Assembly: GCA_964057225.1 (NCBI GenBank)
Contig: OZ059900.1
Span: forward strand, 14,694,001 to 14,758,000
Reading direction: 5' to 3'
DNA: 64,000 bases
Source: Auanema rhodensis
Lineage: Eukaryota > Animalia > Nematoda
Position numbers and translations under genes: made by a program. The notes beneath the pieces are model-generated. The model worked only from the letters and a program-made list of their open reading frames with translations. It was not told the DNA's origin and made no database searches. Positions 476 to 64,000 of the stretch are shown here, in pieces (position 1 is the first letter of the stretch; each line of letters opens with the position of its first letter).

Positions 476-2159
476 TTGAATTTGCACTTAGAAACTTTCA
501 TTAAGAGTGTGAGTTTGAATTAAAGTAGGAAAATGAAACACTGTCTCTAACATATCTTGTTTTATGGCCTACTTTACACAAAGAGCTAATTGAAGTTTGG
601 TGTTACAATTAACGATTGATAAACGCTGACGTATCAATTTTTTTCATCGTAATTAAGATAGAACACTTAAATTAAATAAAAATGTTTGAAAATTTAAAAA
701 AAATCACAAGCTCAAATCACTTTTGAAAAAGCAGAAAGTTTAAAACAATCTTTTTTCTAATAATTATCGTTTTTATCCGACTTTTTGAAGAAAACAAAAA
801 TAGCATAACATTCAATAACGATGAATCAGAACAAAAACATTCTCCCCGGCCGGGAATTGAACCCGGGTCTCGCATGTGACAGACGCGGATACTCACCACT
901 ATACTACCGAGGATTGAATTTGCACTTAGAAACTTTCATTAAGAGTGTGAGTTTGAATTAAAGTAGAAAAATGAAACACTGTCTCTAACATATCTTGATT
1001 TATGGCCTACTTTACTCAAAGAGCTAATTGAAGTTTGGTGTTACAATTAACGATTGATTAACGCTGACGTTTCAATTTTTTTCATCGTAATTAAGATAGA
1101 ACACTTAAATTATATAGAAATGTTTGAAAATTTAAAAAAAAATAACAAGCTCAAATCACTTTTGAAAAAGCAGAAAGTTTAAAACAATCTTTTTTCTAGT
1201 AATTATCGTTTTTATCCGACTTTTTGAAGAAAACAAAAATAGCATAACATTCAATAACGATGAATCAGAACAAAAACATTCTCCCCGGCCGGGAATTGAA
1301 CCCGGGTCTCGCATGTGACAGACGCGGATACTCACCACTATACTACCGAGGATTGAATTTGCACTCAGAAACTTTCATTAAGAGTGTGAGTTTGAATTAA
1401 AGTAGAAAAATGAAACACTTTCTCTAACATATCTTGATTTATGGCCTACTTTACTCAAAGAGCTAATTGAAGTTTGGTGTTAAAATGAACAATTGATTAA
1501 CGCTGACGTTCCGTTTTTTTTTCATCGTAATTGAGATAGAACATTTAAATTAAATGGAAATGTTTAAAAATTTAGAAAAAAAACACAAGCTCAAACCACT
1601 TTTGAAAAAGCAGAAAGTTTAAAACAATCTTTTTTCTAATAATGATCGTCTTTATCCGATTTTTGGAAAAAAACAAAAATAGCATAACATTCAATAACGA
1701 TGAATCAGAACAAAAACATTCTCCCCGGCCGGGAATTGAACCCGGGTCTCGCATGTGACAGACGCGGATACTCACCACTATACTACCGAGGATTGAATTT
1801 GCACTTAGAAACTTTCATTAAGAGTGTGAGTTTGAATTAAAGTAGAAAAATGAAACACTGTCTCTAACATATCTTGATTTATGGCCTACTTTACTCAAAG
1901 AGCTAATTGAAGTTTGGTGTTACAATTAACGATTGATAAACGCTGACGTATCAATTTTTTTCATCGTAATTAAGATAGAACACTTAAATTAAATAGAAAT
2001 GTTTGAAAATTTAAAAAAAAATCACAAGCTCAAACCACTTTTGAAAAAGCAGAAAGTTTAAAACAATCTTTTTTCTAATAATGATCGTCTTTATCCGACT
2101 TTTTGAAGAAAACAAAAATAGCATAACATTCAATAACGATGAATCAGAACAAAAACATT

Positions 2160-2231
2160 CTCCCCGGCCGGGAATTGAACCCGGGTCTCGCATGTGACAG
2201 ACGCGGATACTCACCACTATACTACCGAGGA
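2160..2231 (-). tRNA. tRNA-Asp: tRNA-Asp(GTC), array gene next to the Ty3/gypsy LTR
   Basis: Same 72-nt cloverleaf; its 5' end is 32 nt from the LTR start. Confidence 0.96.
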
Positions 2232-2263
2232 TTGAATTTGCACTTAGAAACTTTCATTAAGAG

Positions 2264-2621
2264 CGTTCCATTCGAATGATCAATGCATTACATTCATATG
2301 ACGAAGCTGTAGCAGGCGGGTTAGAGTCAGAGAATGCGAGACTGAGAGAAGACGACCCGCCCTTTTCCATATTACAACACTTCAGCTTTGCCTCAGGGAC
2401 GATCATGGATGGTTGGTCGTTCTCTCTCTGTTCTCTATTAGTTTAACCTTTACTTAGTTATATGTATCTTATTGTAATCACGTAGATATAATAAACCAAT
2501 CTTTCTCGAGTCTTATGTTTATCCTTATGCTCCATGTTTAACCGCTACATCTGGAATACTACCACGCTCATCTTGTAGACTCCATTGGTCTGTAAGATCG
2601 ACGCGGGAGCATAACGGAACG
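2264..2621 (+). repeat. 5' LTR (358 bp), termini CGTTCC...GGAACG
   Basis: Starts where array similarity ends; first 34 bp recur right after the PPT; terminal inverted repeat CGTTCCATT/AACGGAACG (8/9); AATAAA at 2490-2495; abuts the PBS. Confidence 0.85.
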
Positions 2622-2634
2622 TGGAGGTTCCACC
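2622..2634 (+). promoter_or_regulatory. Primer-binding site, tRNA-Gln
   Basis: TGGAGGTTCCACC is the complement of the metazoan tRNA-Gln 3' end ...GGTGGAACCT-CCA (tRNA sequence recalled from memory). Confidence 0.85.
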
Positions 2635-4131
2635 TCGAACTTATCACAATTTTTTTTTCTTCCTTCTCTCTAATGTTTGTGTTGTTAATTTATTTTCAAA
2701 TCTCTTTCATCTCTTTTTTTCTCATACCATCTACTCTATGTCTTAACACAATACGGAGGGGCCAACAACGTTAAATGGGAACAGAGGCAAGGAATCCTTT
2801 TTTTTTAAAGAAGGATTATACGTTTCGAGATTATTATTTTCCCGTTTGTTCACAAAAATTCTTTCGTCTGAACCTTTAAATTTCGTATCCTTGCTTATAA
2901 CATCTGAAATGCTCTGTTACCCAACCTTGAAGCTTGATGAGGGCTTTAGGCTGAATTAGTGAACAAATTCACCTAAAGTAATTGTTATTTTGTATTTCCC
3001 ACGCCTTCTCCTTTTTAAGGATTAATTTTGGCTTCAAGGAAAGTATAACTTCGGTTATATCTTTATATTTCGTGGATGAAGTTTGTTTTGCGAATCAGGA
3101 CTATTTTATTTTGCGTTACGATTTCGTTCAGACAAATTTTGCTTCTAACATCCTAAATTTATAATCAGTACGCATGAAAAAAATTACACGGGAAACCTCA
3201 CCAAAAAGGGAGGATTGTTAATTTATAGATCGCTATAGTCCGAAAAATCCTGTTGAAAAATGTTATCTCGAATTTGAATCATGATTAACACAGGTCGTGT
3301 TGGCTAAAGCATATCGGTTTGGATTTTCTCCCCTTACTGAATGTCACCTTCCTCATACCGTTATTGTTGTTCAGAAGCATAAGACTCACGCATTGAACCT
3401 TATTCCAACATTAATACTAGTTCTTGTAATATTTAGCCATTTAACTCTGCTTTTATTTCAAAATTCGATTTCTGATCACGAAATACCTACATTCATCATT
3501 GCGAAACGCTCTTTTGTAAAACTAATATTACGAATCCCATGACTTTTGTTACAACGAAACATGCGAGCTAGACCAAACGTATTTGAAAACCAGATTGTAA
3601 AGAAACAAAAATTATTTTTGGTCACAAAAGAGAAATTGGTGCACATTTATTGTTAAACTGCTCTTTTATCAAAAGCATGTTACGAATTACACCATAAGTT
3701 TTGTTGCAAGATGACACACCACATGGTCGAGAAACTAGTGTAACAAAACATAAGTTTAGTCAGCATGAGGAAAATGGTTGCATACAAATCAGTAAAATGT
3801 GCTGTAATTGAACGAATATTACGAATTACACTAAACGTTTTGTAAAATAACAGCTTGGTCACCCCAGATGTTTTGTGAATCAGATTTTCAACTACAGAGA
3901 AAATACGGAGAGCACCAGAGTCCCGATATCACAGAGTAGAAGGCGGATCCATCGCCATTGGCCAAGGCATCGACCTCATTCTCACAAGTTGTCGATACGA
4001 CACCGGTCGCTCTCCAAAGCCCTTCTCATTTTGCCTACATCCTCATCCTTATTCACCGCATTCTTTAACGTCTCAACATCCCACACGTTACCAAGCACTC
4101 AAGGTTTTTTCAAACCAAGAGTTCTAGCAAG

Positions 4132-5706
4132 GTGGCTAAGAGATTCCATTCAGCCGTACCTATAAGTACGCATTTCGATTCCCAAGACTCAGCTCCCTTT
4201 ACCAGAAGTCGAGCTCGAGCTCAAGACGTCGCTATATTAGAAGAGGAGCAGAAAGTCGACAAGAAGCCGGATAATTTCCTTATTCCTACTACTGATTCTG
4301 TCTCACCTACTGAACAACTAGGCGACCCGGACTACGTACCTACTATAGAAGAAGAACTATCAATCATTGTGGAGGAACAAACACCGATCACTCCTAAAAA
4401 GGTACGCTCCTCTAATTCTAATAAAAATAAGAAAAATCAAAACATCAGCGACGCTTCTCAGTCTCTCTCACTAACCGAACCAACCGATTCCCCTTTACTT
4501 TCAAAAACTTCTAGCGCGGGCGGGCTTAGTTCTCTTAGAAACATTGTTACTGATCTTTTTAACCTTTCGCCTAAAGATAAAACTTTCAACACCAAGCGCA
4601 AAAGCAGATATTCATCAGTCCCTAACATTAATATCTCACCAATTCAACCACCTGCGCTAAATACCAGTATTCATCAAACTTCTACTCCCATCTTAACAAC
4701 AACAGACTCACTTCCTAAGGCACCCAATAGACCTATTCCATCCACGCAAACAACCCCTATTTTGGAGACCCCACCAATAACAGGTAGAACGATCAAAATA
4801 CCATCTACCCGTACAAATAACATCATGACGGAAGCTGTTTCCTCACTACCTGGGGCAGGGAAAACAACAATCGCGCAAGCCTTACTTTGGCCTTACTGTC
4901 CAACTTACGACGGCAGTCGTAACTTCCGTGATTTTACGGGTAAATTCAACTTGTTTGCTAATGCCATTGGCCTTGTTATCCCTAAAAGGTTAGCACTTCT
5001 TCCTTTGCTTCTCAAAAATGAAGCAGCAGAAGAAGCTTACAGACAAGTTCCTGAACAACTTAAAACAACTGGTTCGTGGAATGATCTGATTAGAGCACTA
5101 ACATCGAAGCTCTGCCCTGAATATAACCAAGACCCTGCACTTATTAACCTTCAAAACACCACGCAAGGGGAATTGACAATTGATGCATACGCCCAAGCAT
5201 TAAGAACAATGGCATTGAGTGCATTTGCATCTGATGACCCACATAAAGATCAAATACTGAGATCAACATTCCTCAGAGGACTTAAAAATTCTCTAAAACC
5301 AGCTGTGATCCGAGCAAAGCCAAAATCCTTCACAGAAGCGATTGAAGCAGCTCGCTGGGAGGAATCGATAGTGAACCAAACAACAGACACGCAATCGATG
5401 TTGGTCAACGCTGTGAACAAAGCACTAGCACCCTTTGCGCGTAATGATGAGAGACGAGATAGCCAAACATTTAATCGCAATTATCAACGCGATAACCAAA
5501 TGATAAGAAACAATCAAAATTATCAAAATTATCAAAATTATCAAAAAAATAAAAACTTTTCTAATTTCAATAATAATCGAAACCGTTACGGTTCTTTCGC
5601 TAATAATAATCGCCGTACAAATTATAACGAACAAGATAATAGGCAATCGAGTTCTGATTGGCATCAAAGAAATTATAATTTTCGTCATAACAACCAACGA
5701 GGTTGA
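4132..5706 (+). CDS. gag: Gag region: S/T/P-rich N-terminal extension, retrotransposon capsid domain, N/Q/R-rich tail
   Basis: PTYDG...F..F start of capsid, QGELTIDAYAQAL (MHR-like), FLRGL...PKSFTEAIEAA..EE. True start is uncertain: GTG 4132, first internal ATG 4825. Confidence 0.85.
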   Translation: MAKRFHSAVPISTHFDSQDSAPFTRSRARAQDVAILEEEQKVDKKPDNFLIPTTDSVSPTEQLGDPDYVPTIEEELSIIVEEQTPITPKKVRSSNSNKNKKNQNISDASQSLSLTEPTDSPLLSKTSSAGGLSSLRNIVTDLFNLSPKDKTFNTKRKSRYSSVPNINISPIQPPALNTSIHQTSTPILTTTDSLPKAPNRPIPSTQTTPILETPPITGRTIKIPSTRTNNIMTEAVSSLPGAGKTTIAQALLWPYCPTYDGSRNFRDFTGKFNLFANAIGLVIPKRLALLPLLLKNEAAEEAYRQVPEQLKTTGSWNDLIRALTSKLCPEYNQDPALINLQNTTQGELTIDAYAQALRTMALSAFASDDPHKDQILRSTFLRGLKNSLKPAVIRAKPKSFTEAIEAARWEESIVNQTTDTQSMLVNAVNKALAPFARNDERRDSQTFNRNYQRDNQMIRNNQNYQNYQNYQKNKNFSNFNNNRNRYGSFANNNRRTNYNEQDNRQSSSDWHQRNYNFRHNNQRG

Positions 5707-5814
5707 TTCAATAACAACAACGGACAAAGAAGAGTTCAATTCAAAAATCCAAGAGACAACTCAAGAGGAAGAGATAGAAGCTCAACAAGAATAAACTCTG
5801 TCACTCTTTCGCCT

Positions 5815-8800
5815 TTGACGCTCACAGTTATCATGGCAATAACAGCAGCAATATTCTTGCCCTGTGCATCTACATATCAAATCTGTACAAGAGCAACAGG
5901 AGGCGCATTACTTATGCCACCAACAATCAGAAAATGCAGATTAACAGAGAAAAACCATGTGCTACGTACAGAAGTTCATCTGTACACAAGAAATCACACA
6001 GCACACGAATGGGATGCGTGGCGTTGTTCAGAGGAAGTACACAAGTTATGCGTACGAGACCTGCTATTCCTGCGCGATACGAACAGAACAATAAATAGAA
6101 TACAGCTTATAGGAGAGCGCGAGTGCAGACAGGCAATCCGCGATCGCAAGTGGAATGACATAGAACTGCAACGCATTGATAGTATCACCCAAGCAACTCC
6201 GGAGCCCTCCTATGACCCAGCGCGCGCGTTCAACCGCGACGCGTGCGAGGAGCGGTCACGTCTAATATTAGAGCGCGGAGTCATGACCCGTATGCCTGAC
6301 GATACAATATTGTCAAACTTAATATTAAACACGGAAGGATGCAATGCACATCATGGTAATTGTGAATCAAGTACATCAATAATAATATGGGACCCACAAA
6401 CCACTGCTTCACGTTGTAATTACATCGATATGCATACATATGACGCTATCATTAGTCAAGATACTATTTTAATCCCTAGTACACAATCGGCACTTATTCT
6501 TTCGAGCAAACCAACTCCGAAACCTATTTCTTCTTGCTTCAGGCAGCCAGCGTTCCATACGACATCAGGAAATTATATCATTCTTCCTAAATTTCCAAAC
6601 GACAACAATATAACCACCCTTATTGAAAGAGAGTTCAAAAAGCTGCCGTTTAAAAGACCAAAACGTGCAGTCACCGAAGGATGTTCTTTCCCACTGGATC
6701 AAGATCGGATCAACGAAGTTGAAGATTATGAAACAGTATTGCTTCACGTCTGTCCATATACTTTCCTAAGACCATTAATGAGTAATCCCGGTATTACTTC
6801 AATTATTCCTATAATCAAAGGAAGACGTTTAGTAGATCCAACATACTCTCTAAAGGCATGGATAACATCACATAAAGAAAAATTCGAATTTTTCTTCAGA
6901 ATTCAAATAAATGAACATTCTGTTCGACATTTTCTCAAGTAATACGATTTCAGTGATAAAGAAGAAGCTCTGCTATATTATATAGCACAAAGAGAATTAG
7001 CCATTACTACAAAGGCAGCAATATCATACTTAGCATCTGAACAGCTTCTCGAACAAATATCAGATCGTTTGACAGTAATCGAATTCGATGAAATCATAAG
7101 GAAGAAAGAAGGTTCATATCGCGAACGAATTGAAAGCATAGCTCTCAATTTAACCAATACACCAGTTATAATTGAAGAAGGATTGACAGTTCCATCACGA
7201 CAAGAAGTCCTACAAACGTTCATACAAATGCCACCAATAAGGAAACGTATACTAACTGACGAGGAAGAGAAGAAAAGCGAATTCATTAAAGCAACGATCA
7301 ATTTACTAAGAGAACTAAAAACCCTCACAACAGTACGATGGAATAAAACTGCAGCATTTATTGATGACAGAAAATTTATAAAATTGCCAGCATCACGACA
7401 ATTCATGCCAAATACAGATAAACTATTTTATGACAGGAAGAATAATTATGGAATACCGATCGGTCCACACCCTAAGCTGATCAAGCCCAGCAATCTTTCA
7501 AAGAAATTATTATTGGAAATATTTTTACCCCTGCTCAATAATGTAAAAACACCTTATACATCGAGTAGGATAACACAAGAACAACTTCAAATCTTAATGG
7601 CAGAGAAAAATGAAACAAATTTTCGGCAAATCGCAACGCTGACATCCAGCGTCGCGGCAGGCGGCGCGGCTAGCGGCGCGGTTGTGACACCAGTCCAACC
7701 TTTGATCGAACGGAAGGGAACAATCCAATCAGTTACCACAATATAGCCGCAAATAACGAACAATCCTCACACAAATGCAACAACCACCACAAGAGCACCA
7801 TCATGGAGGCAACAGCCATCAACAACGGCGCCTCACACGACCGCTGCGACAACAGCACGCACAACAACATCAACCGCTCGTTCGCCAACAACAACGAGAA
7901 GCTATGCCATATACAAAGACGCACAGATTCCAAAAATACAAGAGACAACCGAAGCCTCTCCAACATTGATTCGAAAAAACCGAGCTTCCTCAACACCATC
8001 AGTAGAAACCTCAAATTCAGTGGAAGCAAATGCGAGATACATAGCAACGAAAATTGACTCGGTACAAGAGTTTCGTCAAAATATATCGAACAAAATAGCC
8101 CAAGATCATTTACAGTATGCTACTACAATGATCCAAGAGGAATTGCAGAAACATTTTGAAGAATCATACGAATCGATTTGCGAGATACAAAATCGGTATC
8201 TGGAATTATGGAAATCAATTCTACAAATTGAACCAACAATCGCAATGCGAACAATACTGGGAAGAGAAGATATAGCCGCACGGTTTGTAGGCAATGAAAT
8301 TTTGCATATACATGTATGCCCTACAGTGCTAGAGAAAACCATTTATCACAATCACACCGTAAATGGCACATGCTATCTCGAAACCCCAGTCTGGACACAA
8401 GACGGACAGTTACTGTTTGCAGCACCCGGATCCAAGGATCTTTTACCTCATGGTAAAGAAATAAGCTGTGATCACGTACCAACAGATATCTGGTCTAGCG
8501 AAGGTGAATGGAAAGGAATTAATGGGACTGCAAACGTCAATCTTGTATCAATGTGGGACGGACTTCATCACGAAAAAATAACACCATTAAAATTTACCGG
8601 AGCTCACTTATACACTAATTTATCGTCTCGTGTATACTCAATGACCACAGCCATAGCTTACGGTGCGAGTTTAGCATCGATTCGTCAGAATCACGTTCTT
8701 CACACAATTCACAATGATCCAAAGATATCAGCTACATTCAGTGTACTAAAGAAAAGTAGCGACTACATATCGAAAGCTCAAGAATTCACCAAGAGCACAT

Positions 8801-8988
8801 GGAAGTCATTCATCGATACAATTGCAGGAACGATTGAGCGAACACTAATAACTATCGGTGCAATTACATTATTTACCATCATACTCTTTGTGATAGGTTT
8901 CATTGTAAAGATCTATTTCTTCAAACCAGTAGGCATACCAGTTATGCATATTGCACTCAAAGATCACGACAGTGATCTACCAACATAC
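5815..8988 (+). pseudogene. env: Envelope glycoprotein, herpesvirus gB-like class III fusogen, interrupted by TAA 6940-6942 and TAG 7744-7746
   Basis: Signal peptide LTLTVIMAITAAIFLPCAST/YQIC; Cys-rich N-half with NxT/S sequons; RPKR furin site 6655-6666; gB-like core LQY..CEIQN..LW..EP...AARFVGN....C...CY..PV (8107-8469); TM helix 8842-8907. All segments are in one frame. Confidence 0.8.
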
Positions 8989-9129
8989 GAAGAAACTTTG
9001 GAATTAGTTAGTCATCCGGACCAACCGATTCCAAGACACATAATGAAACAATACTATCCATCAATGCTCGCATTCATACCAATCGCACTACCATTAGTTT
9101 GCTCGATTTCCAAAAAGAAAGATCAAGCG

Positions 9130-9510
9130 CTACCACTTCTATGGATGACTGTTAACAATAGACTGATCCTAACTTTATGGGACTCAGGTTCGTCCGTCAG
9201 TTACATAAGAATATCGACACTACACTACTTAGCTTTGAATGACTTTGTTAAGAAGAATACATCAAGAGCAACAACAGCGAACGGATCAGAATTTGTATTC
9301 ATTGGTACTATCGACTTAACCGTCGAAATAGCCGGTTACGAAATCGACCACACATTCTTCATATCAGACGACAAAGACTGTCCATCGCCAGCGTTGATTG
9401 GATTAGGTTTCATGAAAACACTTGACTGTCAAAACATTGGCATGAAACTAAGACCATACAAAAGAACACTGGAAATTGGAAATCATGTAGTACCTTTGGC
9501 TAGCGGAATT
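9130..9510 (+). CDS. pro: Retropepsin aspartic protease domain, in frame directly after the Env TM/tail (part of ORF 7966-9681)
   Basis: LWDSGSSVSYI (DSG at 9181-9189), TANG flap, ALIGLGFM. Boundaries approximate. Confidence 0.9.
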
Positions 9511-9891
9511 AACGGGGATATCAACAGGATATCAAAAACTGTTAATTTGATAACCTTGGAACCGCGGAGTCTACTTCCACGACAAGTTTTTAATTTCCAA
9601 GTCCAATTAGAGAACCCAATCGGAGAAGACTTAACCGCTATGATTAAACCAAACGACAATACACCTCTCTCACCTCGATAAGACACAGCATTTCGCGATG
9701 TTAACTCCATCAATATTCAATTCCGGAACAATTCTAAAGAATTCATAGAAATACCGGCCGGCACTGTAATTGCAGAAGCCGAAATAGGATCTATACCGGA
9801 CTATGAAATCTTCTCAACAGAACAACAGTACGACTATATTCCACCAGAAGCAGACTGGGAAGGCAAATTACCTCACTTCCCTGGTGATTTC

Positions 9892-12828
9892 ATGAAAGAA
9901 CTTGACCTAAAAGAGGCTGATCTCACGCAACGACAAAAAGACGAACTACGAAACATCATTCGTCAACGTAAGAAGGCATTCCTCAATGAAGATAAAAAGA
10001 TAGGATTGTTCAAAGGACCAGTAGAACACAAGATACCACTACGAACGGATATGGATATGCCAAAGCCACGAATTTCACGTATACCTCTCGGGAAAAAGGA
10101 AGAGGTAGAAAGACAAGTCCAAGAAATGCTCGAGCAAGGGATAATAGAACGATCGACATCTTTGTTCAACAGCCCTGTCGTTCTCGTTAGGAAAAAAGAC
10201 GAAACATTCCGTTTCGTTACGGATTTCCGAGCCTTAAATAACGTTACAAGAAAACAAACATATGTGATTCCTAACATCTCTGATATCATTGACTTAGCGG
10301 CTGGATCACAATACTTTTCTAATTTTGATCTTGTTTCTGGCTTTTTCCAAATACCATTATCGAAGAAGGATAGACCACTCACATTCTTTACCACCAATAG
10401 TGGGACTTATCAATACAGGAGAATGCCTATGGGATTATGTGGTGCGCCACATACCTTTCAAACAGCCGTGAGATATCTCCAAAGTAAATGTAAATGCCGA
10501 CTATTTGTCTATTTGGACGATTTACTAGTCATATCAGACAGCGCAGAACAACACCTCGAAGACATCAAAGAAGTATTACTCGCTGTAGAAAGACTAGGAT
10601 TTAAGATTAAACTCAAGAAATGTTCATTTGCAAGACCAGAAGTGAAATTTCTCGGACTCATTGTCGGAAGAGACGGAGTTAAGCCCGATCAACAGAAAGT
10701 TTCCGCCATCCGCGATTACCCTGCTCCTCAAACACCCACAGGAGTAAGAGCATTCTTAGGAATGGTCGGATTCTTTAGAAAATTTATTAAAGATTTTGCA
10801 CATATAGCAAGTCCGCTGTATGACCTTACTAAGCTAGACGCAGACTTCAATTGGACTAGCGAATGTCAACGTTCACTAGATAAGCTAAAGGAACGACTAA
10901 TCGAAGCACCGGTATTGAAACCACCACGATCAGACCGAACTTTCATCATTGAAAGTGATGGCAGCAACATCGCCATAGGCGCAGTATTACTGCAGCCCGA
11001 AGATCCAAACGAACCATTCAAGAACTTACATCCAATTGCTTTCGCAAGTAGGAAATTAGTAAAAGCAGAACGTAACTATGCTCCCATAGAGATAGAAGCC
11101 TTAGGCATAGTTTACACTCTAGCACAGTTTCGAACATACATACTTGGATCACATTCAATTTGCATCACCGATCATCGCCCATTGACAAGCTTACTAACTA
11201 GAAGAGACCTATTTGGAAGACTAGCAAAGTTCCAATTGGTCATACAGGAATACGATATTGAGATCAAATATCGAGAAGGCAGATTAAACAAAGTCTGTGA
11301 CGCACTCTCTAGATACATTGGAGATGAAGCTAACGATCCAAAGACGTCGAACAAGAAACAAAAGACGAATTCGAAAGAGAAAATTGAGACACAACAAGTA
11401 AATGTTGTGAAGTTACCAGAATTCAGCTCAATCCAACAAAATACTCCTTGGATCAAGAGAACAATAGCTGAGATTGAATACAGAACGAAGAAAAATATGA
11501 TTCAAAATGATCGTTATTGTGTTATAAACAACTTACTCTACACAAAACCAAGCGTCAAAAGACCTCATCCAGCGTTAATATTGCCATCGGATAGTGATAT
11601 AATTAACAAAATCATTGAAGAATTTCATGAAGACCCAACAATCGGGGCGCATCAAGGAATCAACAAAACAAAAGAAGCCATATTACGAAGATTTTCCTGG
11701 ACTAACATGCAGAACGACATAGCAAAATACGTAAAACAGTGCATCAAATGTGCACAACGAAAGAAAGATCCTCATGCTATGACCGTACAACCAATGGGTC
11801 AATTTAACATACCAACAAAACCATTTGAGAGAATACATATGGATATCATGGGACCATTCCCAACATCAAAAAGGAACAACAGCTATGTCCTCACAATACA
11901 AGACTCTTTCTCCAAATGGGCTACAACTATCGCCATACCAACAATTGTTAGTGAAGTTGTCATTGATAGATTCCTCAGAAACTTTGTATATGTCTATGGA
12001 CCACCGAACCGCTTAATAACAGACCGCGGTTCCAACTTCCTATCAAGGAAATTTGAAGACATGTGCGAAAAACTCGGTATCAAACATGAATCAACACTCC
12101 CACATCAGAAGAATTCCAATGGACAAGTAGAAAGACTTCATAGAACGTTAGAAGAAGGACTCACACATTATCTCAACGAAGATGTCACTGATTGGGACAT
12201 GTTTTTGCCAAAAATTACCTTTGCATTGAACACCACAACGCATGCAACCACAGGAATATCACCATACGTTGTACTATTCGGGAAAGAAAGCCGTTTGAGA
12301 TTGGATAAAGATTTATACCCCGAAACAACTGAACCAAAGGAAATTTCAAAGGAGATTGAAAATATTGAGAAAATCCGAAGCAAACAGAAAACAATCATTC
12401 AAGAAAAATTGGAAAAGCATCAAGAATTAGCAAAAAAGAAACATGATGCTCGATTACGCACTCACGAAAGAGATATACAAGAAGGAGACTGCGTTATGTT
12501 AGCTGTGAAAATGCACAAGCCAGGACAAAAGCTTCGGAAAGCTTATGATGGACCATTTGAAGTTATTAATGTGAAGGGAAACATGGTTCAAATCAAAAAC
12601 CTTTTGGGAAAGATCCAAGACGTTCACAAGGACAATCTCAAATTATTTAATCGAGAAAAAGATGACGGAATCGCACATAAGCCCAGTACACGTACAGACA
12701 GCTCAGACGATGACAGCGATATCGAAATCATAGAGGTTATCAACGGAAACAACAACGATGAAGACTCTTATGACGAACCAGAAGACCTTTCGGATACAAA
12801 TTGGCTACCATCAAGAAAAAACCATTAA
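9892..12828 (+). CDS. pol: Pol: reverse transcriptase, RNase H, integrase with acidic tail
   Basis: SPVVLVRKKD..RFVTDFR.LN, DL.SGFFQI, MPMGL, YLDD (10510-10521); SDGS..AIGAVL, E.EALG, TDHRPL; H..H..CxxC, HMDIMGP, TDRGSNF, NGQVER, YDGPF. Confidence 0.97.
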   Translation: MKELDLKEADLTQRQKDELRNIIRQRKKAFLNEDKKIGLFKGPVEHKIPLRTDMDMPKPRISRIPLGKKEEVERQVQEMLEQGIIERSTSLFNSPVVLVRKKDETFRFVTDFRALNNVTRKQTYVIPNISDIIDLAAGSQYFSNFDLVSGFFQIPLSKKDRPLTFFTTNSGTYQYRRMPMGLCGAPHTFQTAVRYLQSKCKCRLFVYLDDLLVISDSAEQHLEDIKEVLLAVERLGFKIKLKKCSFARPEVKFLGLIVGRDGVKPDQQKVSAIRDYPAPQTPTGVRAFLGMVGFFRKFIKDFAHIASPLYDLTKLDADFNWTSECQRSLDKLKERLIEAPVLKPPRSDRTFIIESDGSNIAIGAVLLQPEDPNEPFKNLHPIAFASRKLVKAERNYAPIEIEALGIVYTLAQFRTYILGSHSICITDHRPLTSLLTRRDLFGRLAKFQLVIQEYDIEIKYREGRLNKVCDALSRYIGDEANDPKTSNKKQKTNSKEKIETQQVNVVKLPEFSSIQQNTPWIKRTIAEIEYRTKKNMIQNDRYCVINNLLYTKPSVKRPHPALILPSDSDIINKIIEEFHEDPTIGAHQGINKTKEAILRRFSWTNMQNDIAKYVKQCIKCAQRKKDPHAMTVQPMGQFNIPTKPFERIHMDIMGPFPTSKRNNSYVLTIQDSFSKWATTIAIPTIVSEVVIDRFLRNFVYVYGPPNRLITDRGSNFLSRKFEDMCEKLGIKHESTLPHQKNSNGQVERLHRTLEEGLTHYLNEDVTDWDMFLPKITFALNTTTHATTGISPYVVLFGKESRLRLDKDLYPETTEPKEISKEIENIEKIRSKQKTIIQEKLEKHQELAKKKHDARLRTHERDIQEGDCVMLAVKMHKPGQKLRKAYDGPFEVINVKGNMVQIKNLLGKIQDVHKDNLKLFNREKDDGIAHKPSTRTDSSDDDSDIEIIEVINGNNNDEDSYDEPEDLSDTNWLPSRKNH

Positions 12829-13519: not shown

Positions 13520-13559
13520 CGTTCCATTCGAATGATCAATGCATTACATTCATGGAACG
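13520..13559 (+). repeat. 3' LTR remnant (34 bp identical to 2264-2297, then GGAACG)
   Basis: CGTTCCATTCGAATGATCAATGCATTACATTCAT is a direct repeat of the 5' LTR start. Confidence 0.85.
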
Positions 13560-50496: not shown

Positions 50497-50528
50497 TGTC
50501 GCGATAAGCGAGTAGGTTTTGTTTTTGT

Positions 50529-50583
<55 letters not shown>

Positions 50584-50835
50584 ATCTCTCTTTATCTCCT
50601 TCCTTTGTAACTAGATCAAAACACATATGCATAACATATGTGTTAACATGTGGCATAAGTAACAGTTTATTTCAGACGACCGCCCAACAACGGAGGACAG
50701 TCTTACATTTTCTACGTTCGCAGTCAGTGATTTTATTCCGTGCTTGTCTTGTTAATTCATCAATAAACCCTTTTCTACATATTTACTTTGTGTTTTACTT
50801 CCAACCATACTATACACTTGTGGTATAACGCCACA
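50497..50835 (+). repeat. LTR (~339 bp), TG...CA
   Basis: Starts TGT at the array break and ends ACA 3 nt before the PBS; contains a polyA signal and a (TC)n tract. Confidence 0.7.
50531..50591 (+). repeat. (TC)n microsatellite inside the LTR
   Basis: More than 20 TC units with occasional TA interruptions. Confidence 0.95.
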
Positions 50836-50838
50836 AAT

Positions 50839-50850
50839 TGGTGCATCGGC
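50839..50850 (+). promoter_or_regulatory. Primer-binding site, tRNA-Gly
   Basis: TGGTGCATCGGC is complementary to the tRNA-Gly(GCC) 3' end ...GCCGATGCA-CCA (recalled). Confidence 0.75.
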
Positions 50851-51123
50851 TAGTTTAGATCTTAGCCGCTTTAAGTCCCGCGTGGCAGGTGAGATACAAC
50901 TCGAACCAAGCGTGTTTGAGCAAAAAACATACTTAATAAAAATCGTGGCGATCATAAGTCCACGTCAAGTCACACCAAACAGACTTGAACAATAAGCAAA
51001 CTCTGAAATTAGAAACAGAGGTTTCAATTTCCTTACGTTCACATATACTGTGATCACCAAACAAACAAAGAAAAAAGAAAACAAAAAAGGAATATAAGCA
51101 TTATTCCTACATCTACAACAAAA

Positions 51124-51606
51124 ATGTCACTCCTTTTTGTCAATCATATGAAACAATCTAACCAGTTTCTTGGAGAACTGCTTACACGATACGAGATGGA
51201 AGTGAAGGACCTTCTTGGTATTCTGGTAGATTGCGACTTCCACACTGAGGAAGAAGAGGAAACCCTCTCTTGCCTTATCATTTGCTGGACAAAAGTCCAA
51301 CACCAATTCAAAGAATCGTTGAAAAATCATCAAGATAACGAGAAAAAATTCCAAAAATTTCACGAAGCATCAGACAAAACGCTTCGTAAAGCATTAGACA
51401 AACAGTACATCGCCTTCACATCCGATGAAGACTTTGAACCCAACATTAAAAAGGTTCAAAACGCCATTATTGAGCTTGACGAACACATCATGAAAGCCGA
51501 ACGCATACTTAACAAAACCTACTCGCTTATCGCGACAACACTGTCTCTAACATATATTGATTTATGGCCTACTTTACTCAAAGAGCTAATTGGAGTTTGG
51601 TGTTAA
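51124..51606 (+). pseudogene. Truncated Gag-like N-terminus (129 codons) reading through into inverted LTR/array sequence
   Basis: AAAAATG start downstream of the PBS; charged, helical/coiled-coil composition; codons from 51511 on come from the inverted LTR fragment and array spacer. Confidence 0.6.
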
Positions 51607-54600
51607 AATGAACAATTTATTAACGCTGACGTTCCGTTTTTTTTTCATCGTAATTGAGATAGAACATTTAAATTAAATGGAAATGTTTAAAAATTTAGAA
51701 AAAAAACACAAGCTCAAATCACTTTTGAAAAAACAGAAAGTTTAAAACAACCTTTTTTCTAATAATTATCTTTTTTATCCGACTTTTGGAAAAAAACAAA
51801 AATAGCATAACATTCAATAACGATGAATCCGAACAAAAACATTCTCCCCGGCCGGGAATTGAACCCGGGTCTCGCATGTGACAGACGCGGATACTCACCA
51901 CTATACTACCGAGGATTGAATTTGCACTTAGAAACTTTCATTAAGAGTGTGAGTTTGAATTAAAGTAGAAAAATGAAACACTGTCTCTAACATATCTTGA
52001 TTTATGGCCTACTTTACTCAAAGAGCTAATTGAAGTTTGGTGTTACAATTAACGATTGATAAACGCTGACGTATCAATTTTTTTCATCGTAATTAAGATA
52101 GAACACTTAAATTAAATAGAAATGTTTGAAAATTTAAAAATAATCACAAGCTCAAATCACTTTTGAGAAAGCAGAAAGTTTAAAACAATCTTTTTTCTAA
52201 TAATTATCGTTTTTATCCGACTTTTTGAAGAAAACAAAAATAGCATAACATTCAATAACGATGAATCAGAACAAAAACATTCTCCCCGGCCGGGAATTGA
52301 ACCCGGGTCTCGCATGTGACAGACGCGGATACTCACCACTATACTACCGAGGATTGAATTTGCACTTAGAAACTTTCATTAAGAGTGTGAGTTTGAATTA
52401 AAGTAGAAAAATGAAACACTGTCTCTAACATATCTTGATTTATGGCCTACTTTACCCAAAGAGCTAATTGAAGTTTGGTGTTACAATTAACGATTGATAA
52501 ACGCTGACGTATCAATTTTTTTCATCGTAATTAAGATAGAACACTTAAATTAAATAGAAATGTTTGAAAATTTAAAAATAATCACAAGCTCAAATCACTT
52601 TTGAAAAAACAGAAAGTTTAAAACAATCTTTTTTCTAATAATTATCGTTTTTATCCGACTTTTTGAAGAAAACAAAAATAGCATAACATTCAATAACGAT
52701 GAATCAGAACAAAAACATTCTCCCCGGCCGGGAATTAAACCCGGGTCTCGCATGTGACAGACGCGGATACTCACCACTATACTACCGAGGTTTGAATTTG
52801 CACTTAGAAACTTTCATTAAGAGTGTGAGTTTGAATTAAAGTAGAAAAATGAAACACTGTCTCTAACATATATTGATTTATGGCCTACTTTACTCAAAGA
52901 GCTAATTGAAGTTTGGTGTTAAAATGAACAATTGATTAACGCTGACGTTCCGTTTTTTTTTCATCGTAATTGAGATAGAACATTTAAATTAAATGGAAAT
53001 GTTTAAAAATTTAGTAAATATCACAAGCTCAAATTACTTTTGAAAAAACAGAAAGTTTAAAACAACCTTTTTTCTAATGATTATCTTTTTTATCCGACTT
53101 TCGGAAGAAAACAAAAATAGCATAACATTCAATAACGATGAATCAGAACAAAAACATTCTCCCCGGCCGGGAATTAAACCCGGGTCTCGCATGTGACAGA
53201 CGCGGATACTCACCACTATACTACCGAGGTTTGAATTTGCACTTAGAAACTTTCATTAAGAGTGTGAGTTTGAATTAAAGTAGAAAAATGAAACACTGTC
53301 TCTAACATATATTGATTTATGGCCTACTTTACTCAAAGAGCTAATTGAAGTTTGGTGTTAAAATGAACAATTGATTAACGCTGACGTTCCGTTTTTTTTT
53401 CATCGTAATTGAGATAGAACATTTAAATTAAATGGAAATGTTTAAAAATTTAGTAAATATCACAAGCTTAAATCACTTTTGAAAAAACAGAAAGTTTAAA
53501 ACAACCTTTTTTCTAATAATTATCTTTTTTATCCGACTTTTGGAAAAAAACAAAAACAGCATAACATTCAATAACGATGAATCAGAACAAAAACATTCTC
53601 CCCGGCCGGGAATTGAACCCGGGTCTTGCATGTGACAGACGCGGATACTCACCACTATACTACCGAGGATTGAATTTGCACCTAGAAACTTTCATTAAGA
53701 GTGTGAGTTTGAAATAAAGTAGAAAAATGAAACACTGTCTCTAACATATCTTGATTTATGGCCTACTTTACTCAAAGAGCTAATTGAAGTTTGGTGTTAC
53801 AATTAACGATTGATAAACGCTGACGTATCAATTTTTTTCATCGTAATTAAGATAGAACACTTAAATTAAATAGAAATGTTTGAAAATTTAAAAAAAAATC
53901 ACAAGCTCAAACCACTTTTGAAAAAGCAGAAAGTTTAAAACAATCTTTTTTCTAATAATTATCGTTTTTATCCGACTTTTTGAAGAAAACAAAAATAGCA
54001 TAACATTCAATAACGATGAATCAGAACAAAAACATTCTCCCCGGCCGGGAATTGAACCCGGGTCTCGCATGTGACAGACGCGGATACTCACCACTATACT
54101 ACCGAGGATTGAATTTGCACTTAGAAACTTTCATTAAGAGTGTGAGTTTGAATTAAAGTAGAAAAATGAAACACTGTCTCTAACATATCTTGTTTTATGG
54201 CCTACTTTACACAAAGAGCTAATTGAAGTTTGGTGTTACAATTAACGATTGATAAACGCTGACGTATCAATTTTTTTCATCGTAATTAAGATAGAACACT
54301 TAAATTAAATAGAAATGTTTGAAAATTTAAAAAAAATCACAAGCTCAAATCACTTTTGAAAAAGCAGAAAGTTTAAAACAATCTTTTTTCTAATAATTAT
54401 CGTTTTTATCCGACTTTTTGAAGAAAACAAAAATAGCATAACATTCAATAACGATGAATCAGAACAAAAACATTCTCCCCGGCCGGGAATTAAACCCGGG
54501 TCTCGCATGTGACAGACGCGGATACTCACCACTATACTACCGAGGTTTGAATTTGCACTTAGAAACTTTCATTAAGAGTGTGAGTTTGAATTAAAGTAGA

Positions 54601-57651: not shown

Positions 57652-59519
57652 CGTTCCATTCGAATGATCAATGCATTACATTCATATGACGAAGCTGTAG
57701 CAGGCGGGTTAGAGTCAGAGAATGCGAGACTGAGAGAAGACGACCCGCCCTTTTCCATATTACAACACTTCAGCTTTGCCTCAGGGACGATCATGGATGG
57801 TTGGTCGTTCTCTCTCTGTTCTCTATTAGTTTAACCTTTACTTAGTTATATGTATCTTATTGTAATCACGTAGATATAATAAACCAATCTTTCTCGAGTC
57901 TTATGTTTATCCTTATGCTCCATGTTTAACCGCTACATCTGGAATACTACCACGCTCATCTTGTAGACTCCATTGGTCTGTAAGATCGACGCGGGAGCAT
58001 AACGGAACGTGGAGGTTCCACCTCGAACTTATCACAATTTTTTTTTCTTCCTTCTCTCTAATGTTTGTGTTGTTAATTTATTTTCAAATCTCTTTCATCT
58101 CTTTTTTTCTCATACCATCTACTCTATGTCTTAACACAATACGGAGGGGCCAACAACGTTAAATGGGAACAGAGGCAAGGAATCCTTTTTTTTTAAAGAA
58201 GGATTATACGTTTCGAGATTATTATTTTCCCGTTTGTTCACAAAAATTCTTTCGTCTGAACCTTTAAATTTCGTATCCTTGCTTATAACATCTGAAATGC
58301 TCTGTTACCCAACCTTGAAGCTTGATGAGGGCTTTAGGCTGAATTAGTGAACAAATTCACCTAAAGTAATTGTTATTTTGTATTTCCCACGCCTTCTCCT
58401 TTTTAAGGATTAATTTTGGCTTCAAGGAAAGTATAACTTCGGTTATATCTTTATATTTCGTGGATGAAGTTTGTTTTGCGAATCAGGACTATTTTATTTT
58501 GCGTTACGATTTCGTTCAGACAAATTTTGCTTCTAACATCCTAAATTTATAATCAGTACGCATGAAAAAAATTACACGGGAAACCTCACCAAAAAGGGAG
58601 GATTGTTAATTTATAGATCGCTATAGTCCGAAAAATCCTGTTGAAAAATGTTATCTCGAATTTGAATCATGATTAACACAGGTCGTGTTGGCTAAAGCAT
58701 ATCGGTTTGGATTTTCTCCCCTTACTGAATGTCACCTTCCTCATACCGTTATTGTTGTTCAGAAGCATAAGACTCACGCATTGAACCTTATTCCAACATT
58801 AATACTAGTTCTTGTAATATTTAGCCATTTAACTCTGCTTTTATTTCAAAATTCGATTTCTGATCACGAAATACCTACATTCATCATTGCGAAACGCTCT
58901 TTTGTAAAACTAATATTACGAATCCCATGACTTTTGTTACAACGAAACATGCGAGCTAGACCAAACGTATTTGAAAACCAGATTGTAAAGAAACAAAAAT
59001 TATTTTTGGTCACAAAAGAGAAATTGGTGCACATTTATTGTTAAACTGCTCTTTTATCAAAAGCATGTTACGAATTACACCATAAGTTTTGTTGCAAGAT
59101 GACACACCACATGGTCGAGAAACTAGTGTAACAAAACATAAGTTTAGTCAGCATGAGGAAAATGGTTGCATACAAATCAGTAAAATGTGCTGTAATTGAA
59201 CGAATATTACGAATTACACTAAACGTTTTGTAAAATAACAGCTTGGTCACCCCAGATGTTTTGTGAATCAGATTTTCAACTACAGAGAAAATACGGAGAG
59301 CACCAGAGTCCCGATATCACAGAGTAGAAGGCGGATCCATCGCCATTGGCCAAGGCATCGACCTCATTCTCACAAGTTGTCGATACGACACCGGTCGCTC
59401 TCCAAAGCCCTTCTCATTTTGCCTACATCCTCATCCTTATTCACCGCATTCTTTAACGTCTCAACATCCCACACGTTACCAAGCACTCAAGGTTTTTTCA
59501 AACCAAGAGTTCTAGCAAG

Positions 59520-61094
59520 GTGGCTAAGAGATTCCATTCAGCCGTACCTATAAGTACGCATTTCGATTCCCAAGACTCAGCTCCCTTTACCAGAAGTCGA
59601 GCTCGAGCTCAAGACGTCGCTATATTAGAAGAGGAGCAGAAAGTCGACAAGAAGCCGGATAATTTCCTTATTCCTACTACTGATTCTGTCTCACCTACTG
59701 AACAACTAGGCGACCCGGACTACGTACCTACTATAGAAGAAGAACTATCAATCATTGTGGAGGAACAAACACCGATCACTCCTAAAAAGGTACGCTCCTC
59801 TAATTCTAATAAAAATAAGAAAAATCAAAACATCAGCGACGCTTCTCAGTCTCTCTCACTAACCGAACCAACCGATTCCCCTTTACTTTCAAAAACTTCT
59901 AGCGCGGGCGGGCTTAGTTCTCTTAGAAACATTGTTACTGATCTTTTTAACCTTTCGCCTAAAGATAAAACTTTCAACACCAAGCGCAAAAGCAGATATT
60001 CATCAGTCCCTAACATTAATATCTCACCAATTCAACCACCTGCGCTAAATACCAGTATTCATCAAACTTCTACTCCCATCTTAACAACAACAGACTCACT
60101 TCCTAAGGCACCCAATAGACCTATTCCATCCACGCAAACAACCCCTATTTTGGAGACCCCACCAATAACAGGTAGAACGATCAAAATACCATCTACCCGT
60201 ACAAATAACATCATGACGGAAGCTGTTTCCTCACTACCTGGGGCAGGGAAAACAACAATCGCGCAAGCCTTACTTTGGCCTTACTGTCCAACTTACGACG
60301 GCAGTCGTAACTTCCGTGATTTTACGGGTAAATTCAACTTGTTTGCTAATGCCATTGGCCTTGTTATCCCTAAAAGGTTAGCACTTCTTCCTTTGCTTCT
60401 CAAAAATGAAGCAGCAGAAGAAGCTTACAGACAAGTTCCTGAACAACTTAAAACAACTGGTTCGTGGAATGATCTGATTAGAGCACTAACATCGAAGCTC
60501 TGCCCTGAATATAACCAAGACCCTGCACTTATTAACCTTCAAAACACCACGCAAGGGGAATTGACAATTGATGCATACGCCCAAGCATTAAGAACAATGG
60601 CATTGAGTGCATTTGCATCTGATGACCCACATAAAGATCAAATACTGAGATCAACATTCCTCAGAGGACTTAAAAATTCTCTAAAACCAGCTGTGATCCG
60701 AGCAAAGCCAAAATCCTTCACAGAAGCGATTGAAGCAGCTCGCTGGGAGGAATCGATAGTGAACCAAACAACAGACACGCAATCGATGTTGGTCAACGCT
60801 GTGAACAAAGCACTAGCACCCTTTGCGCGTAATGATGAGAGACGAGATAGCCAAACATTTAATCGCAATTATCAACGCGATAACCAAATGATAAGAAACA
60901 ATCAAAATTATCAAAATTATCAAAATTATCAAAAAAATAAAAACTTTTCTAATTTCAATAATAATCGAAACCGTTACGGTTCTTTCGCTAATAATAATCG
61001 CCGTACAAATTATAACGAACAAGATAATAGGCAATCGAGTTCTGATTGGCATCAAAGAAATTATAATTTTCGTCATAACAACCAACGAGGTTGA
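59520..61094 (+). CDS. gag: Gag region, copy 2
   Basis: Protein identical to 4132-5706. Confidence 0.85.
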   Translation: MAKRFHSAVPISTHFDSQDSAPFTRSRARAQDVAILEEEQKVDKKPDNFLIPTTDSVSPTEQLGDPDYVPTIEEELSIIVEEQTPITPKKVRSSNSNKNKKNQNISDASQSLSLTEPTDSPLLSKTSSAGGLSSLRNIVTDLFNLSPKDKTFNTKRKSRYSSVPNINISPIQPPALNTSIHQTSTPILTTTDSLPKAPNRPIPSTQTTPILETPPITGRTIKIPSTRTNNIMTEAVSSLPGAGKTTIAQALLWPYCPTYDGSRNFRDFTGKFNLFANAIGLVIPKRLALLPLLLKNEAAEEAYRQVPEQLKTTGSWNDLIRALTSKLCPEYNQDPALINLQNTTQGELTIDAYAQALRTMALSAFASDDPHKDQILRSTFLRGLKNSLKPAVIRAKPKSFTEAIEAARWEESIVNQTTDTQSMLVNAVNKALAPFARNDERRDSQTFNRNYQRDNQMIRNNQNYQNYQNYQKNKNFSNFNNNRNRYGSFANNNRRTNYNEQDNRQSSSDWHQRNYNFRHNNQRG

Positions 61095-61202
61095 TTCAAT
61101 AACAACAACGGACAAAGAAGAGTTCAATTCAAAAATCCAAGAGACAACTCAAGAGGAAGAGATAGAAGCTCAACAAGAATAAACTCTGTCACTCTTTCGC
61201 CT

Positions 61203-64000
61203 TTGACGCTCACAGTTATCATGGCAATAACAGCAGCAATATTCTTGCCCTGTGCATCTACATATCAAATCTGTACAAGAGCAACAGGAGGCGCATTACT
61301 TATGCCACCAACAATCAGAAAATGCAGATTAACAGAGAAAAACCATGTGCTACGTACAGAAGTTCATCTGTACACAAGAAATCACACAGCACACGAATGG
61401 GATGCGTGGCGTTGTTCAGAGGAAGTACACAAGTTATGCGTACGAGACCTGCTATTCCTGCGCGATACGAACAGAACAATAAATAGAATACAGCTTATAG
61501 GAGAGCGCGAGTGCAGACAGGCAATCCGCGATCGCAAGTGGAATGACATAGAACTGCAACGCATTGATAGTATCACCCAAGCAACTCCGGAGCCCTCCTA
61601 TGACCCAGCGCGCGCGTTCAACCGCGACGCGTGCGAGGAGCGGTCACGTCTAATATTAGAGCGCGGAGTCATGACCCGTATGCCTGACGATACAATATTG
61701 TCAAACTTAATATTAAACACGGAAGGATGCAATGCACATCATGGTAATTGTGAATCAAGTACATCAATAATAATATAGGACCCACAAACCACTGCTTCAC
61801 GTTGTAATTACATCGATATGCATACATATGACGCTATCATTAGTCAAGATACTATTTTAATCCCTAGTACACAATCGGCACTTATTCTTTCGAGCAAACC
61901 AACTCCGAAACCTATTTCTTCTTGCTTCAGGCAGCCAGCGTTCCATACGACATCAGGAAATTATATCATTCTTCCTAAATTTCCAAACGACAACAATATA
62001 ACCACCCTTATTGAAAGAGAGTTCAAAAAGCTGCCGTTTAAAAGACCAAAACGTGCAGTCACCGAAGGATGTTCTTTCCCACTGGATCAAGATCGGATCA
62101 ACGAAGTTGAAGATTATGAAACAGTATTGCTTCACGTCTGTCCATATACTTTCCTAAGACCATTAATGAGTAATCCCGGTATTACTTCAATTATTCCTAT
62201 AATCAAAGGAAGACGTTTAGTAGATCCAACATACTCTCTAAAGGCATGGATAACATCACATAAAGAAAAATTCGAATTTTTCTTCAGAATTCAAATAAAT
62301 GAACATTCTGTTCGACATTTTCTCAAGTAATACGATTTCAGTGATAAAGAAGAAGCTCTGCTATATTATATAGCACAAAGAGAATTAGCCATTACTACAA
62401 AGGCAGCAATATCATACTTAACATCTGAACAGCTTCTCGAACAAATATCAGATCGTTTGACAGTAATCGAATTCGATGAAATCATAAGGAAGAAAGAAGG
62501 TTCATATCGCGAACGAATTGAAAGCATAGCTCTCAATTTAACCAATACACCAGTTATAATTGAAGAAGGATTGACAGTTCCATCACGACAAGAAGTCCTA
62601 CAAACGTTCATACAAATGCCACCAATAAGGAAACGTATACTAACTGACGAGGAAGAGAAGAAAAGCGAATTCATTAAAGCAACGATCAATTTACTAAGAG
62701 AACTAAAAACCCTCACAACAGTACGATGGAATAAAACTGCAGCATTTATTGATGACAGAAAATTTATAAAATTGCCAGCATCACGACAATTCATGCCAAA
62801 TACAGATAAACTATTTTATGACAGGAAGAATAATTATGGAATACCGATCGGTCCACACCCTAAGCTGATCAAGCCCAGCAATCTTTCAAAGAAATTATTA
62901 TTGGAAATATTTTTACCCCTGCTCAATAATGTAAAAACACCTTATACATCGAGTAGGATAACACAAGAACAACTTCAAATCTTAATGGCAGAGAAAAATG
63001 AAACAAATTTTCGGCAAATCGCAACGCTGACATCCAGCGTCGCGGCAGGCGGCGCGGCTAGCGGCGCGGTTGTGACACCAGTCCAACCTTTGATCGAACG
63101 GAAGGGAACAATCCAATCAGTTACCACAATACAGCCGCAAATAACGAACAATCCTCACACAAATGCAACAACCACCACAAGAGCACCATCATGGAGGCAA
63201 CAGCCATCAACAACGGCGCCTCACACGACCGCTGCGACAACAGCACGCACAACAACATCAACCGCTCGTTCGCCAACAACAACGAGAAGCTATGCCATAT
63301 ACAAAGACGCACAGATTCCAAAAATACAAGAGACAACCGAAGCCTCTCCAACATTGATTCGAAAAAACCGAGCTTCCTCAACACCATCAGTAGAAACCTC
63401 AAATTCAGTGGAAGCAAATGCGAGATACATAGCAACGAAAATTGACTCGGTACAAGAGTTTCGTCAAAATATATCGAACAAAATAGCCCAAGATCATTTA
63501 CAGTATGCTACTACAATGATCCAAGAGGAATTGCAGAAACATTTTGAAGAATCATACGAATCGATTTGCGAGATACAAAATCGGTATCTGGAATTATGGA
63601 AATCAATTCTACAAATTGAACCAACAATCGCAATGCGAACAATACTGGGAAGAGAAGATATAGCCGCACGGTTTGTAGGCAATGAAATTTTGCATATACA
63701 TGTATGCCCTACAGTGCTAGAGAAAACCATTTATCACAATCACACCGTAAATGGCACATGCTATCTCGAAACCCCAGTCTGGACACAAGACGGACAGTTA
63801 CTGTTTGCAGCACCCGGATCCAAGGATCTTTTACCTCATGGTAAAGAAATAAGCTGTGATCACGTACCAACAGATATCTGGTCTAGCGAAGGTGAATGGA
63901 AAGGAATTAATGGGACTGCAAACGTCAATCTTGTATCAATGTGGGACGGACTTCATCACGAAAAAATAACACCATTAAAATTTACCGGAGCTCACTTATA
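61203..64000 (+). pseudogene. env: gB-like env, copy 2 (partial); stops at 61776-61778 and 62328-62330, then open to the window end
   Basis: TGG>TAG is unique to this copy; CAG at 63132 where copy 1 has TAG. Confidence 0.8.

Follow-up and report, generated by a model that had tools for sequence, protein, structure and literature searches.

The window, i.e., the whole 64,000-nucleotide stretch of contig OZ059900.1 of the nematode Auanema rhodensis analyzed here, contains a retroelement whose coding region from 4069 to 12828 forms a single reading frame with in-frame stops at 5704–5706, 6940–6942, 7744–7746, and 9679–9681. According to Pfam, gag, env, protease, reverse transcriptase (RT), RNase H, and integrase follow one another along this frame (Table 1). 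The insert described in this article is borne by the Env of this element, which is a gag-env-pro-pol element, probably of the Ty3/gypsy kind, with a glycoprotein B (gB)–type Env. Herein, the Ty3_capsid match in gag (E 2e-5) lies below the cut-off, and the RT piece of the homologue P0002 best matches Ty3 RT. The Env combines a relation to class III fusogens with a hydrophobic leader, a Cys scaffold, and a transmembrane anchor. It is matched by the Pfam families Monjiviricetes_fusion (PF24664; E 3e-13, above cut-off) and Glycoprotein_B (PF00606; E 7e-9, below cut-off), and its C-terminal half matches herpesvirus gB chains with E values of 0.003–0.005. The N-terminal half, judged by eye, resembles the Nematoda_C1 domain I–II rows in supplement 2 of PMC13524379. 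The nearest Env record is P0002 from Auanema sp. JU1783, with 62% identity over 400 gB columns.

Table 1. Features of the element and of its second copy, in coordinates of the window
Feature	Position	Strand	Evidence and remarks
gag reading frame	4069..5706	+	Retrotrans_gag E 4e-6, Ty3_capsid E 2e-5 (below cut-off); ends at in-frame stop 5704–5706
Hydrophobic segment before the ectodomain, likely internal signal peptide/anchor (role inferred)	5797..5877	+	Kyte-Doolittle peak 2.05, same in P0002
gB-type Env, N-terminal half (domains II/I)	5875..6594	+	59% identity to P0002 over 5875–6666; 10 Cys
Site 1, RPKR then AV, canonical furin-type motif	6655..6666	+	Sequence; RTKR-AV in P0002
Inserted domain, predicted compact, mostly α-helical (288 aa modeled)	6667..7530	+	AlphaFold2, 15-row alignment: pLDDT 80.8, pTM 0.80
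Domain core common to Caenorhabditis and Ancylostoma elements	6787..7044	+	hhalign probability 84%, E 8e-6 to the C. japonica/brenneri group
In-frame stop within the insert domain	6940..6942	+	Common to the second copy at 62328–62330
Poorly conserved spacer	7531..7746	+	19% identity to P0002; in-frame stop 7744–7746 at its end
Thr-rich, mucin-like tract, predicted O-glycosylated stalk	7747..7965	+	22 Thr, 6 Ser, 8 Pro in 73 aa
Site 2, RKNR then AS, minimal R-X-X-R motif	7972..7983	+	Sequence; basic motif at the same distance in 7/8 nearest sequences
gB-type Env, C-terminal half (domain III core helix to domain V and membrane-proximal part)	8101..8925	+	Monjiviricetes_fusion E 3e-13, Glycoprotein_B E 7e-9 (below cut-off)
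Predicted Env transmembrane anchor	8833..8943	+	Kyte-Doolittle peak 2.66
Aspartic protease	9145..9417	+	gag-asp_proteas E 2e-6; in-frame stop downstream at 9679–9681
RT, RNase H, integrase, same frame	9682..12828	+	RVT_1, RT_RNaseH, Integrase_H2C2, rve
Second, near-identical copy, running off the window end	59457..64000	+	Insert at 62043–63371; own stop 61776–61778

A search for LTRs returned only one LTR-like block near the left end (2308–2549) and a 34-bp terminal repeat, which is direct and found at both ends of the element (2264–2297 and 13520–13553). Between the LTR-like block and gag lies a leader of ~1.5 kb (2550–4068), the plus strand of which has no long open frame. In sequencing run X1, a contig passes from 13553 into the sequence found at 2298 onward. 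The arrangement of the left copy suggests circular permutation, such as would result from a one-LTR circle opened ~44 nt upstream of the LTR. Most of the window is filled by a 438/439-bp satellite (1–2263, 13556–50497, and 51537–57651) whose orientation is reversed from one side of the element to the other. A separate LTR-like piece at 50497–51606 contains a (TC)n run and a 197-aa open frame running into the satellite.

The second copy begins near 57590 and differs from the first at three positions in 6412 bp (2201–8612 versus 57589–64000). Two of these three differences concern stop codons, of which each copy has one that the other lacks; for so few changes, nonsense changes are oddly overrepresented. 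With four in-frame stops in copy 1 and at least three in the window-contained part of copy 2, neither is an intact element, and neither can make the Env protein as it stands. Two of the stops of copy 1 (6940–6942 and 7744–7746) interrupt the insert, the latter being private to this copy. In four sequencing runs from three studies (one of these runs may be the source of the window itself), the main contigs deviate from the window within three stop codons, at 5704, 6940, and 7744, which are the stops covered by this comparison. The insert is covered by the main contigs of all four runs, one contig spanning 5155–9061, and none of the joints listed in these runs skips it, as an insert-less variant of the element would. 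Since the copies differ in their stops, the four runs differ within three of them, and P0002 reads through the insert region unbroken, the stops are lesions and no feature of the Env family. Programmed read-through or a changed genetic code was considered for the stops and rejected because of the same differences between copies and runs.

An initial sequence-only reading had described a Cys-poor insert of ~440 aa in the fusogen, bracketed by two furin-type sites. Both basic motifs are present at their assigned places and lie in one frame, and the stretch from after RPKR through RKNR comprises 439 residues with only 2 Cys. RKNR had been located just before the gB core helix. It ends ~40 residues short of the gB Pfam match, which begins at residue 799 of P0001, and so does not directly precede it.

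Relatives were collected with a profile of the window Env and P0002, which found 317 representatives at E ≤ 0.001, the best 150 of which were listed. Of 152 stored proteins, 90 matched both gB halves, and 86 were left after four with early-ending anchor matches had been dropped. Among these 86, drawn from the best 150 of 317 matches, the stretch between the anchors has a median length of 43 aa (range 8 to 504 aa, where single linker lengths could be distorted by gene predictions), with 53 linkers of ≤60 aa, 7 of 61 to 120 aa, and 26 of >120 aa. It measures 495 aa in the window, 490 aa in P0002, and 504 aa in the longest case. The assumption that the furin loop of gB proteins is short is therefore correct for most relatives but not for the 26 long ones, and a long insert is not unique to the window. 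The 10 Cys of the N-terminal half, like all 14 Cys of the two flanks, are kept in 53–74 of 74 aligned homologues (best 150 of 317). The first two flank Cys are 17 residues apart, and the Cys of domain III aligns to herpesvirus gB. The equivalents of these Cys in HSV gB link the N-terminal piece to domains III and IV. In gB, an N-terminal Cys is bonded downstream, and the furin site is situated in the domain II–III linker (PMC12240383).

Since the gB-type profiles begin only after the insert, 53 of the 86 homologues join the two halves with ≤60 aa, and all 14 flank Cys are conserved, the 439 residues are, by sequence comparison, an insert in the domain II–III furin loop that is distinct from any gB domain. 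The possibility of an ordinary gB domain, which the earlier reading had named as its own refutation, is thereby removed. Since 26 of 86 homologues carry more than 120 aa in this loop, long inserts are a recurrent trait of the family, of which the window is an extreme example. Long inserts of a second family without relation to the first (353–504 aa) occupy the same loop in P0022, P0031, and P0046 (Aphelenchus avenae records and one other). Here, P0022 and P0046 contain a second canonical R-X-K-R within the loop, and P0031 contains one by eye.

The inserted domain was modeled by AlphaFold2, with the stop codon entered as X. The model consists almost entirely of helix with one short strand pair, in line with the helical character guessed from the sequence. 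A single-sequence AlphaFold run of 6667–7743 gave a pLDDT of 33. Identity to P0002 amounts to 59% and 61% in the gB halves, 47% over 6667–7230 (the first 188 residues of the insert), 27% over 7231–7530, and 19% over the spacer 7531–7746. No Cys is conserved across the insert family, with two in the window and P0002 and none in P0007. Pfam contains no family matching the window insert at E < 0.001 or that of 13 homologues at E < 0.01. With the good model as query, Foldseek found no match at E ≤ 0.001 in the PDB and viral libraries, and VIA-align found none at Z ≥ 5 among 48,161 chains (best Z 4.0, the death-domain chain 9vin_A, rmsd 3.1 over 62 aligned residues, model 111–177). A second fold comparison reached Z 3.2 at best, and the ESM Atlas held no feature match ≥0.9 (best TM 0.43). 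These blanks, obtained with the whole model, do not establish a new fold. Word-indexed searches with the insert alone (lengths 305–973) and with a long alignment (length window 1155–3295) returned nothing; both are weak searches, as relatives do exist. The domain is conserved, predicted to fold separately, and apparently an undescribed family within a known kind of fusogen.

A core of ~85 residues is found at the same place of the Env in Auanema, Caenorhabditis, and Ancylostoma (best 150 of 317 matches). The window-type insert family itself comprises at least eight Auanema records and one further record. When hhalign compares it with the C. japonica and C. brenneri inserts, which are shorter, a core of ~75 columns scores 41 versus ≤22 for 12 block-shuffles and 11 for the reversed control. 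The link to a second C. brenneri group is weak (E 0.002; 27 versus ≤16 in controls). This group links onward to two more groups (97% and 90%), to which direct links from the group of the window are no better than controls. Weak links also lead to a larger Caenorhabditis group (P0025, P0028, P0029, and P0087; direct hhalign E 0.48, profile E 0.04–0.1). A profile of the core matches 13 of the 152 stored proteins at E < 0.001 (best 150 of 317) and four more at E 0.04–0.1, with none from reversed controls, and it finds two proteins outside its building set: P0030 of C. nigoni and P0096 of Ancylostoma duodenale. Carriers of the core are hence Auanema, C. japonica, C. brenneri, C. nigoni, and Ancylostoma, where it directly follows site 1 wherever that region is present. 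The small Caenorhabditis version of the domain measures ~125 aa. Among the best 150 of 317 matches, the domain occurs only in an Env context or in fragments.

A tree was calculated for 74 proteins from the gB halves alone (midpoint root, quick search; 12 of the 86 were left out because of a partial N-terminal half). Herein, the window falls into a clade (SH-aLRT 97) with five Caenorhabditis Envs, two of which bear the domain and three of which have short loops; the three short-loop Envs belong to C. brenneri, C. remanei, and C. briggsae and have loops of 66–79 aa. Because short-loop and domain-bearing Envs share this supported clade with the window, the domain is optional within one clade. A single clade for the 13 rows labeled domain-bearing is not rejected by the AU test (p 0.18). 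Compared across homologous Envs, the core recurs in three genera and was lost or never gained in sister elements.

The tract that had been called mucin-like contains 36 S/T/P among its 73 residues, 22 of them Thr, whereas Thr makes up 9.8% of the whole reading. Windows of 30 aa with ≥50% Ser/Thr exist in 14 of the 26 long linkers versus 0 of 26 flanking halves (best 150 of 317). They are mostly located in the C-terminal part of the linker; the composition is conserved, the sequence is not. The linkers of P0024, P0026, P0043, and P0067 are nearly all Thr-rich and contain no helical domain. No Ser/Thr-rich stalk exists in P0008, P0009, and P0010 (Caenorhabditis, with the domain) or in P0015 and P0017, where the maximum is 17–33%.

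The two basic sites, both present in the window and P0002, are not equivalent. RPKR fits the furin consensus R-X-K/R-R, but RKNR only fits the minimal R-X-X-R, so the designation as two furin-type sites applies fully to the first alone. Their conservation differs likewise, with site 1 conserved and site 2 kept only in the nearest lineage (7/8). A canonical motif stands at the start of 18 among the 26 long linkers and of 20 among the 60 short ones (best 150 of 317). Site 1 is thus the ordinary gB furin site of the family, with the insert on its membrane-anchored side. For site 2, the 1070-aa reading of the window contains four R-X-X-R motifs versus 3.8 expected by chance, and the last 70 residues of the long linkers show no family-wide enrichment (7 of 26 versus 9.1 expected; best 150 of 317). 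In seven of the eight nearest sequences, R-X-X-R or K/R-R followed by S, T, A, or V lies 30–33 residues before the domain III anchor. Shuffles expect 0.21 such cases in total for these eight, and 3 of 107 other proteins have the motif; motif and distance range were herein chosen after looking, and seven of the eight sequences come from one assembly and are thus nonindependent. P0019 shows a similar basic run by eye. Of the Caenorhabditis-type sequences with the domain, 11 were checked, and site 2 is absent from all of them. In C. elegans collagens, convertase cleavage is predicted at R-x-x-R, and mutation of this motif mimics loss of BLI-4 (PMC10538796).

Taken together, the insert may act as an accessory attachment (tropism) head that sits at the prefusion spike tip on a stalk rich in Thr and likely O-glycosylated; this reading is given a probability of roughly 45%. 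The function is herein derived from architecture and analogy, and the position, length, conservation, and presence or absence of the domain from the comparisons above. A host convertase would cut site 1, and the conserved disulfides would keep the two gB halves joined. Tied via the stalk to the membrane-anchored half, the head would project from the apex, at the place of prefusion domain II, and bind a host surface or matrix molecule. Herpesvirus gB leaves attachment largely to partner glycoproteins. In the lineage of the window only, the weaker site 2 might allow later removal of the head, so that refolding would be unobstructed.

This attachment role is favored because the smallest versions of the domain would stay attached after the single cut and because many versions sit on a Thr-rich stalk. 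The domain-bearing Caenorhabditis relatives have no second basic site before domain III, so their domain would stay attached. Further points in favor are the constraint on the first 188 residues (47% identity to P0002 versus 59–61% for the gB halves) and the confident model. In HSV gB, O-glycans of the domain II loop bind host co-receptors, and domain II is located at the prefusion apex (bioRxiv 10.64898/2026.02.03.703472). The apex position of the insert is carried over from such herpesvirus structures and thus holds by analogy. Against an attachment role, a head on a stalk is not universal, as five relatives have no Ser/Thr-rich stalk; sister elements without the domain would need other means of attachment; and early cleavage of site 2, while still in the producing cell, would remove the head before any binding.

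Alternatively, the insert could be a removable cap or pro-domain that holds the trimer in its prefusion state or protects it (from triggering too early, from proteases, or from host lectins) and is cut away to prime fusion with no receptor binding involved. The bracketing basic sites of the nearest lineage (site 2 in 7/8), the lack of any family-wide Cys by which the insert could be bonded to the core, and the Thr-rich tracts of 14 of 26 long linkers, several without the shared domain (best 150 of 317), are consistent with such a cap. Some herpesvirus gBs also possess more than one convertase site in the domain II–III loop (PMC6784293). Nevertheless, a cap seems unlikely, as the Caenorhabditis relatives retain the domain without the second site, and a shield has no need of a conserved folded domain. 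Moreover, nematodes are not known to have antibodies, which removes the usual reason for a glycan shield.

The loop might also accept almost anything, the domain being a tolerated passenger or folding aid that is only kept since a misfolded insert would harm the polyprotein. The length range of the linker (8 to 504 aa), several long linkers that are mutually unrelated by BLAST, and the loss or missing gain of the domain in close sister elements would be expected of a passenger. It is nonetheless improbable: elements of Auanema, Caenorhabditis, and Ancylostoma have all retained this core though deletion is evidently possible, and a useless 1.3-kb insert should vanish quickly. Least probable is a cargo, i.e., a secreted protein of ~440 aa that is freed by double cleavage and acts on the host by itself; both sites are present in the window and P0002 and the domain is predicted to fold on its own, but site 2 is not enriched in long linkers (7 of 26 versus 9.1 expected), is missing where the domain is oldest-looking and smallest (P0008–P0010), and the domain is confined to Env context or fragments among the best 150 of 317 matches. 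Release by double cleavage, as the sequence-only reading had proposed, therefore fails as the general purpose of the domain, since Caenorhabditis relatives carry it without the second site.

Carried further, the attachment head would mean that nematode retroelements built a helical receptor-binding head of undescribed fold into a class III fusogen—gained, enlarged, or lost by lineage and shed here at a second convertase site—as a one-chain substitute for the attachment proteins of herpesviruses. As a whole, this extended version is conceivable yet rather doubtful. The domain bears on target-cell choice in the envelope-bearing retrotransposons of invertebrates: no attachment partner is known for their gB-type fusogens, and this conserved domain, placed at the predicted spike tip, is a concrete candidate. 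Because it is present in some Caenorhabditis elements and absent from sister elements, a natural comparison is available in a tractable genus. The furin loop of a class III fusogen can hence carry a whole domain, and an unnamed protein domain is provided for structural work.

GAG-ENV-POL errantiviruses with an HSV/gB-type ENV were reportedly described in Nematoda by Sacco et al. in 2022. Such elements with a gB-type Env are known from nematodes, bryozoans, and flatworms (Chary and Hayashi, eLife 2026, PMC13524379). The element of the window resembles those of PMC13524379 in the order gag-env-pro-RT-RH-IN, the gB-type Env flanked by a hydrophobic leader and a transmembrane anchor, the conserved Cys scaffold, and nearest records from nematodes. 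For those, five conserved domains are given, with a furin site "not always conserved" (PMC13524379). The words "linker," "mucin," and "domain III" are absent from the main text of that article, its supplementary alignments examined here cover domains I–II only, and there is no Auanema among 30 of the 36 Nematoda rows of its supplement 1. No description of the insert or of a variable loop was found in the literature searched; Sacco et al. 2022 and the figures of PMC13524379, outside this scope, may show the insert. Thus, the type and layout of the element are already known, whereas the inserted domain is apparently undescribed.

The closest parallel is the domain II–III loop of herpesvirus gB: the same loop, of variable length, with convertase sites, located at the prefusion apex, and with O-glycans in herpesviruses. 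For gB of EHV-1, processing at two sites is said to occur. The glycan cap and mucin-like domain of Ebola GP and p27 of RSV F are glycosylated appendages next to a furin site that are removed by proteolysis; as class I fusogens with unrelated folds, these share a functional likeness with the insert only. The HSV gB loop is O-glycosylated and binds PILR-alpha and MAG (bioRxiv 10.64898/2026.02.03.703472). In HSV-2, the loop accounts for ~26 unresolved residues (461–486; same preprint), whereas ~495 residues with a predicted folded domain lie between the anchors here.
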